Positions 21,625-23,030 of a DNA stretch of 64,000 nucleotides are shown piece after piece. Origin of the DNA: Escherichia phage NHEP10; the sequence record PQ511148.1. One strand, 5' to 3'. The notes under the pieces are model-generated. The model had not been told where the DNA came from and ran no database searches. It was given only the letters and a program-made list of their open reading frames with translations. The first letter of the stretch is position 1. Each line of letters starts with the position of its first letter. Position numbers and translations under genes: made by a program.

Positions 21625-21864
21625 TTATTTGAATTTCTTAGCGATGTTGATATAACGTAGAGCTTCGGCATCAATACTTCCAAGGACACTATGAAGGAAT
21701 GCGTCGGCATAGTATTCTAGTTGAACAGGTTCTTTAATCGCTTTAGCCGCTTTAGTTTCAAACAGGCCCATAAGGGCCTTTTTAAGAATTTGTTCGTTGC
21801 TGTTAATTTTAATAGTCAAAATCTCTTCATTAAGTTGGTGGTTAAAAGTTTTTCTAGAAATCAT
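21625..21864 (-). CDS. Hypothetical protein (79 aa)
   Basis: ORF track. Confidence 0.45.
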   Translation of the reverse strand: MISRKTFNHQLNEEILTIKINSNEQILKKALMGLFETKAAKAIKEPVQLEYYADAFLHSVLGSIDAEALRYINIAKKFK

Positions 21865-23030
21865 TCTGGGTACCTCAAAGCGTCGTCAGAGTTAGTTATA
21901 TCAATAATAGATATAGAATTTTCTGATAACCCATTTTTAGATAACTGACGTTTATAATATCTTTCACAATATGTACACGTCGTCCCACAGATTTCATTAG
22001 CACAATCGAAATCTGGATGTCTGAACCACCTTTTTTCTAAAAAGCCGTCTAACAAAGAGGTTTCAATATTTACCGTATGTGAAAACTCGGTCTCATTTTC
22101 AAGAGTGAAAATGGTCTCTAAAGGCTTCCACAATTCCAACAAATTACCTTCAAACTTTTCAGAAGCGTATGCTTCAAGAACTTTCAAAATGTAGTCGGTG
22201 CTACCTGTACGTCCTGAAACTTTGAATTGAGTGATACCAATATCATTATAAAGTTTCAAATCTTGTGGACGAACAAAACGAGTTCTCAACCAGTTAAATG
22301 GGTCTGTATCACGAGCTTTAATACAGTGCTGCATAGGATATCCATTTAATGATTTGGCATCATCTACTGTAACATCGGTGCTATGGAAAATATAGCAAGA
22401 GTCACGATAGCTACAATGTGTTGTATACCCTTTACCAGCATTAGAACAGAACTCATTTACAAGAACTTCAAATATTATATTGTTCTTATTGCAAAACTCT
22501 GCTGCACGCTTCAGGAAAGAAACTGAACGGTTCTTATGAATTCCACAGCAGACCTTTTTGATATTATACTGGTCATGCAAGTATTTGATTTGAGTTACAG
22601 CATCGACATGTAGAATTGTTGAAACTTCAATCTCAATGTCTTTATTGACTTCACGAACAATTTCCATAACAACAGGGTTAGCGATAGTAATACGCCATAC
22701 GCCTATTGACCAAAGATACTGAACATAATCCTGAATAGCTTTCTTCTTCCACTCAACTAGTTCTCTTTTTGAACCGGGATTTATCGTGTTGAGTGTATAG
22801 TTAAAGCAAATACCTAATTCGTTACAACGTTTAACGTAATCTTCTAACATCTTTTTGTCAACGTCAGGAAGCCTAAAATCAGGTCTGGCTGCTACAAAAG
22901 CCATTTCTCTTGTAGAGCCATATACTTCGTTTATCAAGCTATTAGGATAGGTTTTATTGAGCTCTACGATTTTATCAAGAAGAGCTAAATCAAAATTCGT
23001 TCCGATTTTAAAAGTATTCATTTTTTGCAT
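21861..23030 (-). CDS. Hypothetical 389-aa protein with C-terminal C-x3-C-x2-C cluster; candidate modification enzyme
   Basis: ORF track; C-terminal CANEICGTTCTYCERYY; no family assigned. Confidence 0.6.
   Translation of the reverse strand: MQKMNTFKIGTNFDLALLDKIVELNKTYPNSLINEVYGSTREMAFVAARPDFRLPDVDKKMLEDYVKRCNELGICFNYTLNTINPGSKRELVEWKKKAIQDYVQYLWSIGVWRITIANPVVMEIVREVNKDIEIEVSTILHVDAVTQIKYLHDQYNIKKVCCGIHKNRSVSFLKRAAEFCNKNNIIFEVLVNEFCSNAGKGYTTHCSYRDSCYIFHSTDVTVDDAKSLNGYPMQHCIKARDTDPFNWLRTRFVRPQDLKLYNDIGITQFKVSGRTGSTDYILKVLEAYASEKFEGNLLELWKPLETIFTLENETEFSHTVNIETSLLDGFLEKRWFRHPDFDCANEICGTTCTYCERYYKRQLSKNGLSENSISIIDITNSDDALRYPE

Follow-up and report, generated by a model that had tools for sequence, protein, structure and literature searches.

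The window analysed here is a stretch of 64,000 nucleotides from Escherichia phage NHEP10 (PQ511148.1), and our subject is a gene inside its DNA-modification module, located at 21861..23030 on the minus strand. The gene encodes a 389-amino-acid (aa) protein, the homolog of gp50 of phage RB69 (in the following, gp50), which belongs to the U32 family (PF01136) and is a putative iron-sulfur (Fe-S) hydroxylase. We propose, with a probability of roughly 55%, that gp50 hydroxylates C5 of cytosine in DNA precursors by a reaction that depends on prephenate and not on O2. The proposal draws on the family and fold of the protein, on its two four-ligand cysteine sites and on the genes found next to it and its relatives. 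These features are established by the analysis, and Fe-S occupancy, the use of prephenate, the identity of the substrate and independence of O2 are inferred.

Family and fold of gp50

The open reading frame (ORF) was found exactly, from ATG to stop, where a preliminary description of this DNA had placed it, and its position within the modification module was likewise borne out. (All features given with coordinates below lie on the same strand.) A second ATG is located 9 nt downstream, and the alignments with homologs begin at approximately residue 4 (MNTFK...); this ATG may be the true start, which would give a protein of 386 aa. The same description had treated the protein as an unassigned orphan. 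It is not an orphan, because it matches the Pfam model Peptidase_U32 (PF01136; 42.4 bits against a cut-off of 22.4, E 6.4e-11, aa 97–289) and phrog_5757, occurs at an identity of at least 80% in 221 phage records, has 282 word-indexed homologs, and reached 1,181 clusters (clustered at 50% identity) at E ≤ 1e-3 in an exhaustive search. The window comes from an RB69-like Mosigvirus, with a 4.4-kb region 98% identical to many Escherichia phages, and gp50 is 99.5% identical to RB69p050, annotated as “peptidase”. By these matches, gp50 is an already catalogued protein, the product of a known RB69 gene, and a member of the U32 family.

The preliminary description had called for a structure and profile check, and this gave a complete U32-type (β/α)8 TIM barrel, the fold of Mk0906 (PDB 5d88). 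The fold was taken from an alignment-based model, as the single-sequence AF2 model was poor (pLDDT 44). The Pfam domain (22164..22742) falls within this barrel, and the hhalign alignment to RlhA covers aa 57–288. Mk0906, a U32 “peptidase” from Methanopyrus kandleri, is only 14% identical to gp50 and, at 247 aa, lacks the C-terminal four-cysteine extension described below. A phmmer search of gp50 against the PDB returned no match, and a search of BFVD returned nothing further except the copy from Escherichia phage OLB35. The OLB35 ortholog is deposited as two ORFs of 269 and 108 aa (A0A3G3MCS7 and A0A3G3MCT7), a split that probably reflects a frameshift or a sequencing error.

Two conserved four-ligand sites

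There are 13 cysteines in gp50, at positions 69, 75, 161, 162, 180, 195, 206, 212, 236, 343, 348, 352 and 355. The preliminary description had drawn attention to a C-x3-C-x2-C cluster with which the protein was said to end, and likened it to the ligands of radical S-adenosylmethionine (SAM) enzymes. The flagged string, CANEICGTTCTYCERYY, is present and the spacing C348-x3-C352-x2-C355 is real, but the cluster is in fact a group of four, C343-x4-C348-G-x2-C352-x2-C355 (21966..22004), and not the three-cysteine triad of radical-SAM proteins. It occupies residues 343–355, and the protein continues for another 34 residues beyond it. In shuffled versions of the gp50 sequence, the frequency of CxxxCxxC was 1.2% and that of the complete four-cysteine pattern 0.03%. 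We consider this group a putative second Fe-S (or Zn) site. The first site lies in the barrel (22323..22448) and has the form E193-F194-C195...C206-x5-C212-Y-x-x-H216...C236, a variant of the U32 signature in which the cysteines are putative [4Fe-4S] ligands.

Both sites are conserved. Among 121 close homologs, C161, C195, C206, C212, C236, C343, C348, C352 and C355 do not vary, and C180 hardly does. We also compared a distant set of 121 representatives with 27–50% identity to gp50. The barrel cysteines C206 and C236 are present in all of these and C195 in 120, while 74 have Cys and 46 have His at position 212. Such a Cys/His exchange is typical of a metal ligand. The C-terminal cysteines are retained in about 92% of the distant set (C343 in 111, C348 in 112, C352 and C355 in 113 each), and the motif is kept even in genome-bin relatives at 24–29% identity; its spacing differs among relatives, although the cysteine columns stay. 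C161 (72 of 121) and C180 (18 of 121) are not general features of the family on this comparison. Judged by conservation, then, gp50 has a four-ligand site in the barrel and another in the C-terminal extension.

A radical-SAM-like enzyme, in which C-x3-C-x2-C binds a SAM-cleaving cluster, would account for the spacing of C348, C352 and C355. However, Pfam found no Radical_SAM, Fer4_12/14 or other Fer4 match in gp50 at E ≤ 0.1, while the true radical-SAM protein of the window, the activase NrdG (41072-41542), matches clearly (Fer4_12, 164 bits) and carries its CxxxCxxC near the N-terminus, at aa 26. In gp50 the motif is located at aa 348–355 of 389, after a complete U32 barrel and not near the N-terminus of a partial one; the fourth conserved cysteine, C343, leaves no open iron site; and the spacing changes in relatives while the cysteine columns persist. 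The suggestion that gp50 might be the “missing transferase” of the module fares no better, since the glycosyltransferases of the module are already assigned (PMC13326640) and nothing points to such a role. We regard either identity as hardly credible. A “redox step” involving a metal, which was also suggested, holds up in part: the U32 family does have Fe-S members and the flagged cysteines are strongly conserved, while an Fe-S cluster in gp50 itself is putative.

Comparison with characterised U32 proteins

The best profile match among characterised U32 proteins was RlhA (YdcP), the E. coli synthase of 5-hydroxycytidine at C2501 of 23S rRNA. The hhalign probability was 86% for RlhA (partial alignment), 16% for TrhP, 6% for UbiU and 0.3% for UbiV, the last three alignments being too weak for mapping ligands. 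The NCBIfam UbiU model scored 19.3 bits against a cut-off of 440. In the alignment to RlhA, E193, C206, C212, Y213 and H216 of gp50 correspond to E161, C169, C176 and the following Y-x-x-H of RlhA; both proteins have a U32 domain, and an E...C-x-C-Y-x-x-H signature aligns between them. The U32 signature is E-x-F-x2-G-x2-C-x4-G-x-C-x-[LIVM]-S, and the recurrent cysteine pattern in the family is CX6CX15CX3/4C; in this region E193-F194 and C206-x5-C212-Y-I-F-H of gp50 align with E161, C169 and C176 of RlhA. RlhA has C169-x6-C176-x15-C192-x3-C196, whereas gp50 has C195-x10-C206-x5-C212-x23-C236, a non-canonical spacing because an insertion bears C195 and the fourth ligand, C236, follows at x23.

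Like gp50, RlhA has a C-terminal cysteine group in addition to the cysteines of the U32 domain. It consists of C572, C580, C611 and C614, of which C580 and C611 are essential (PMC5727448), and its arrangement (C572-x7-C580...C611-x2-C614) differs from the Cx4Cx3Cx2C of gp50. In UbiU as in UbiV, a [4Fe-4S] cluster is bound by four cysteines (PMC6747719). The C-terminal cluster of gp50 is therefore in character for the family, and its placement is not atypical, as had been thought. The characterised U32 members are Fe-S proteins, directly in the case of UbiU and UbiV and on genetic grounds for RlhA and TrhP. RlhA depends genetically on Fe-S biogenesis and on prephenate (PMC5727448), which is also genetically required for TrhP (PMC6599085) and has been demonstrated as the oxygen donor for UbiU/UbiV by 18O-shikimate labelling (PMC10990095). 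The chemistry of RlhA, C5-hydroxylation of cytosine, is the one we propose for gp50. The two proteins differ in that RlhA has 653 aa, includes a DUF3656 domain and acts on pre-50S rRNA, while gp50 has 389 aa, and Pfam found neither DUF3656 nor Peptidase_U32_C in it.

The name of the family, together with the GenBank and PHROG annotations, would make gp50 a collagenase-type “peptidase U32”, and there are historical reports of collagenolytic activity for PrtC and HP0169 (PMC5727448). The characterised U32 members are hydroxylation factors, the conserved residues of gp50 have the character of metal ligands, and its genomic context is one of nucleotide, sugar and shikimate metabolism. We know of no catalytic mechanism for proteolysis in the family. 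A genuine protease is very improbable on these grounds.

The DNA-modification module

The gene following gp50 encodes gp49 (21625..21864), a Cys-free protein of 79 aa (phrog_8601), the start of which overlaps the gp50 stop in an ATGA; by this overlap the two genes are translationally coupled. It is followed by gp48 (20867..21583), a thymidylate-synthase homolog (Pfam Thymidylat_synt), approximately 99.6% identical to RB69ORF048c, that serves as a flavin- and O2-dependent synthase of 5-hydroxy-deoxycytidine monophosphate (5hodCMP), an activity shown for RB69. The RB69 enzyme suffices to make 5hodCMP; it is a flavin protein, and 18O2 labelling identified O2 as its source of oxygen (PMC13326640). 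Next come gp46:47 (19968..20867), the first DNA arabinosyltransferase (GT-B), assigned by RB69 synteny and PMC13326640 Table 1, and gp45 (19419..19967), a thymidylate-kinase-like nucleotide kinase. On the other side of gp50 are gp51 (23078..23479; NCBIfam TIGR01689, E 4e-13), a HAD phosphatase converting arabinofuranose (Araf)-1,5-P2 to Araf-1-P (PMC13326640); gp52:53 (23464..25149), a bifunctional sugar-1-P nucleotidyltransferase (NTase) and kinase of UDP-arabinose synthesis, with Pfam NTP_transferase and weak kinase matches (PMC13326640); and gp55 (25331..25966), an arabinose-5-phosphate isomerase. In the window, one intact ORF encodes the arabinosyltransferase (299 aa) and another the NTase-kinase (561 aa). 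The RB69 reference record splits each of them (046/047 and 052/053), which has been ascribed to sequencing errors (PMC13326640).

RB69 DNA bears arabinosyl-5-hydroxycytosine (PMC13326640, NAR 2026). UDP-arabinose is made by the isomerase, the kinase/NTase and the phosphatase, only the AfhE/AfhF homologs being needed, and Acinetobacter phage DLP3 makes tri-arabinosyl-5-hydroxycytosine without any U32 gene (PMC13326640). No known step of the aerobic pathway needs gp50, because gp48 makes 5hodCMP, the sugar steps are complete and DLP3 manages without a U32 protein. In Table 1 of PMC13326640, gp50 has the computational label “sugar or heterocycle reductase”. The terms U32, peptidase and prephenate do not appear in the text of that paper, which uses “anaerobic” only for a culture chamber in the methods and cites tRNA hydroxylation pathways in its Discussion without a tie to gp50. 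The gene is not mentioned as a U32 member in Thomas 2018, the Thanatos paper or the Durham Collection paper.

The position of gp50 next to gp48 has parallels in known pairs of enzymes. TrhP and TrhO provide a prephenate-dependent U32 route and an O2-dependent route, respectively, to the same 5-hydroxypyrimidine, ho5U34 of tRNA, as we propose for gp50 and gp48. TrhO is a rhodanese, whereas gp48 is a flavin-bound thymidylate-synthase homolog, and the substrate of TrhP is tRNA, whereas that of gp50 would be a deoxynucleotide destined for DNA. The UbiU-UbiV pair, the O2-independent hydroxylases of ubiquinone synthesis, is likewise the counterpart of flavin/O2 mono-oxygenases, and has two clusters per functional unit, as proposed for gp50. 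In UbiU-UbiV, two U32 proteins form a heterodimer that acts on a polyprenyl phenol with the lipid carrier UbiT, whereas gp50 is one polypeptide with two four-cysteine sites.

Shikimate-pathway genes beside U32

In LC53, KLB31 and most non-Mosigvirus relatives, a stand-alone chorismate mutase (CM; CM_2, 38–45 bits against a gathering threshold of 27) is located between the U32 gene and the gp48 gene, the slot that gp49 occupies in the window. This CM clade is found in 48 phage records, each time in the U32-gp48 slot. In large uncultivated phages and genome bins, U32 proteins that are 45–58% identical to gp50 also adjoin shikimate-pathway genes. Among the U32-bearing loci compared in this analysis (designated by L-numbers), DAHP synthase-CM fusions are found beside U32 in L033, L035/36, L046 and L101, DAHP synthase alone in L005 and L022, and a stand-alone CM in L098. 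DAHP synthase is otherwise rare, occurring in only 11 of 50,697 phage records. Chorismate mutase makes prephenate, and the recurrence of CM and DAHP synthase beside U32 in independent gene architectures suggests a supply of prephenate to the U32 protein.

We considered whether the DAHP_synth_1 neighbours could be KDO8P synthases, which would link them to arabinose-5-phosphate, and rejected this: the DAHP synthase models scored 130–237 bits against 47–67 bits for KDO8P, and the proteins have fused CM_2 domains. The human-faecal contig MT837090, which carries a DAHP synthase-CM gene, begins inside that gene, and no U32 context is readable there. We also rejected gp49 as a cryptic CM. It has no PF01817 match at E ≤ 10 and an hhalign probability of 0.09% to the phage CM clade, and gp49 and CM occur together, as separate genes, in L015, L018 and L023. 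The 114-aa CM of the LC53 type has an N-terminal extension (MRRINHTMNEL...) that resembles the N-terminus of gp49, and this likeness suggests a past fusion or deletion.

Distribution and gene neighbourhoods

The U32 gene and its companion, CM or gp49, form an indel cassette flanked by the genes for the phosphatase and for gp48. The rest of the module is present, but the cassette is absent, in Acinetobacter phage Maestro, Pseudomonas phage PspYZU05 and E. coli phage JS98. Enzymes of the gp48 type occur in 373 phage records, including 57 from Acinetobacter and about 20 from Rhizobium/Agrobacterium. Neither group is among the ten commonest organism names of the U32-positive records, with 12 further records falling under seven less common names in which a stray one is possible. 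The host genera named for the U32-positive phage records are all facultative anaerobes, with no strict aerobe among them. Among 49 distant U32 loci, there was no gp48-type enzyme near the U32 gene or on the same IMG/VR contig. A thymidylate-synthase-family gene was near U32 in two of them, an ordinary ThyA in L024 and one of unclassified type in L112. The closest genome-bin relatives of gp50, which belong to these distant loci, are from Erysipelotrichales, Oscillospiraceae, Gastranaerophilaceae, Romboutsia, Tannerella and a Phocaeicola faecalis isolate, all of which are obligate anaerobes. The O2-dependent TrhO is missing in obligate anaerobes, while both TrhO and TrhP are found in facultative anaerobes (PMC6599085), and the distribution of gp50 and gp48 appears to follow the same logic.

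In the distant loci, U32 is located beside a dCMP deaminase, thymidylate or adenylate-type kinases, glycosyltransferases related to gp46:47, or a fusion of a nucleoside monophosphate (NMP) kinase with a SAM methyltransferase; the loci with the fusion are without any sugar genes. These nucleotide-related neighbours fit a scheme in which the base is hydroxylated and the hydroxyl then decorated better than they fit a role in modifying sugars. A function in the sugar branch or as a cofactor enzyme, for example in pentose modification or in reducing the flavin of gp48, would agree with the published reductase label, with the SIS isomerase, NTase-kinase and glycosyltransferase genes that often adjoin U32 in distant phages, and with epimerase-like neighbours in L005 and L006. 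However, the synthesis of UDP-arabinofuranose is redox-neutral and covered by the isomerase, the kinase/NTase and the phosphatase; DLP3, Maestro and PspYZU05 have the full sugar branch without U32; and sugar genes are absent from some U32 loci, such as those with dCMP deaminase-U32 (L004 and L006) or kinase-methyltransferase-U32 (L105-L108). Such a function also leaves the CM and DAHP synthase neighbours unexplained, and to our knowledge no U32 member is a sugar reductase. We therefore consider it distinctly unlikely.

A further alternative retains the prephenate-dependent hydroxylation and makes the substrate RNA or polymeric DNA, for instance U34 of host or phage tRNA or C2501 of rRNA, as for TrhP and RlhA. 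T-even phages encode tRNAs, the characterised U32 enzymes that act on pyrimidine C5 do so on RNA polymers, and RlhA is the best profile match of gp50. However, gp50 is without the RNA-associated domains DUF3656 and Peptidase_U32_C, it is embedded and translationally coupled in a DNA-modification module, its distant homologs adjoin dCMP deaminase and NMP kinases, and E. coli already has TrhP and RlhA. This alternative, too, is unlikely, and a DNA precursor remains our preferred substrate.

Several of the loci had further features. In L105-L108 (approximately 5800-9100) and L099 (5912-9140), in bins that include Tannerella, BRC1 and the Phocaeicola faecalis isolate FXJYN30E22, U32 is part of a conserved trio that lacks sugar genes. 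The other two members are a Guanylate_kin and Methyltransf_11 fusion of 414–443 aa and a protein of about 267 aa that contains the motif “PDTHVIQATxRLGL” and has a weak profile match to the archaeal 8-oxoG DNA glycosylase 1xqo (E 0.006). The trio may constitute a DNA modification system that hydroxylates, O-methylates and inserts a base. L099, a contig from a Bacillota bin, has two U32 paralogs (8001-9140 and 13227-14360), the second of which is very divergent (Pfam 21.7 bits, just below the cut-off). L004, a 466-kb JGI contig from a very large phage, has a dCMP deaminase, U32 and then a 254-aa protein without a family match (1314-3454 and 9447-11939), with genes for radical SAM/SPASM, MazG-like, UDG, thymidylate kinase and Pol III alpha proteins nearby, which suggests another uncharacterised base-modification module. 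Finally, in several Winklervirus/Kanagawavirus relatives, a 212-aa ORF for a putative (homing-endonuclease-like) endonuclease is located between the HAD phosphatase and U32 (L002, 6352-6990; also L012, L016, L018 and L019).

Proposed reaction

The substrate of gp50 would most likely be dCMP, converted to 5hodCMP with oxygen from prephenate. In the reaction as we envisage it, dCMP would bind in the U32 barrel beside a [4Fe-4S] cluster held by C195, C206, C212 and C236, and the cytosine ring would be oxidised by two electrons, which would leave via a second cluster on C343, C348, C352 and C355 to an unspecified acceptor. This C-terminal cluster would take the place of the second subunit of the UbiU-UbiV pair. 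Decarboxylation of prephenate would then deliver hydroxide to C5, yielding 5hodCMP, phenylpyruvate and CO2. The scheme is the one proposed for U32 enzymes in PMC10990095, and the same release has been proposed for UbiU/UbiV, TrhP and RlhA. The 5hodCMP would follow the known route through the dNMP kinase, the polymerase and the arabinosyltransferases. In this scheme gp50 would be an anaerobic isozyme of its neighbour gp48, and an enteric phage that has destroyed its dCTP pool would be able, even in the anoxic gut, to go on making arabinosyl-5-hydroxycytosine DNA. The window also encodes, next to NrdG, the anaerobic ribonucleotide reductase NrdD (41539-43356; 573 bits). A phage with NrdD and NrdG is otherwise equipped for O2-free replication, and it would therefore be at a disadvantage if its sole substitute for cytosine could be made only with O2.

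Several points weigh against this proposal. By profile comparison, gp50 is part of a distinct clade and is the ortholog of no characterised U32 hydroxylase, and no U32 protein has so far had its direct hydroxylase activity reconstituted in vitro (PMC10990095). The accessible literature contains no biochemical or genetic experiment that gives gp50 a role. The window, which is from a Mosigvirus, has no chorismate mutase, with the unrelated gp49 in its place, and the phage would therefore depend on PheA/TyrA of the host. E. coli phages of the JS98 type keep gp48 without U32, so that enteric phages can do without the cassette. The frequent association of U32 with sugar-activation genes (SIS isomerase, NTase-kinase) is compatible with a sugar role. 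The correlation with aerobic and anaerobic hosts rests on few independent lineages, and the hosts of metagenome bins are assigned indirectly.

Implications

A wider claim, which we would put a little short of even odds, is that the gp50 clade represents the first U32 prephenate-dependent hydroxylases that act on DNA precursors, and an O2-free route to 5-hydroxypyrimidine hypermodification. In phages of facultative anaerobes they would be parallel isozymes to gp48, in the manner of NrdAB/NrdDG and TrhO/TrhP, and many of the phages and elements that live in obligate anaerobes would have them as the sole hydroxylase, feeding glycosylated and possibly O-methylated 5-hydroxypyrimidines into DNA; some of these phages would import DAHP synthase and CM for the oxygen donor.

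If this is true, RB69-like phages would be able to build arabinosyl-5-hydroxycytosine DNA in the anoxic gut, even though the only demonstrated hydroxylase needs O2. U32/prephenate chemistry would gain a soluble small-molecule substrate, dCMP, and a long-standing in vitro problem would become tractable. The odd CM and DAHP synthase genes of phages would be explained as a supply of the oxygen donor, and a large unexplored set of 5-hydroxypyrimidine DNA modifications would be predicted in the phages of gut anaerobes, to judge from the 1,181 clusters. Phage therapy and engineering would also be affected, since modification state and restriction evasion could hinge on oxygen and on the aromatic metabolism of the host.

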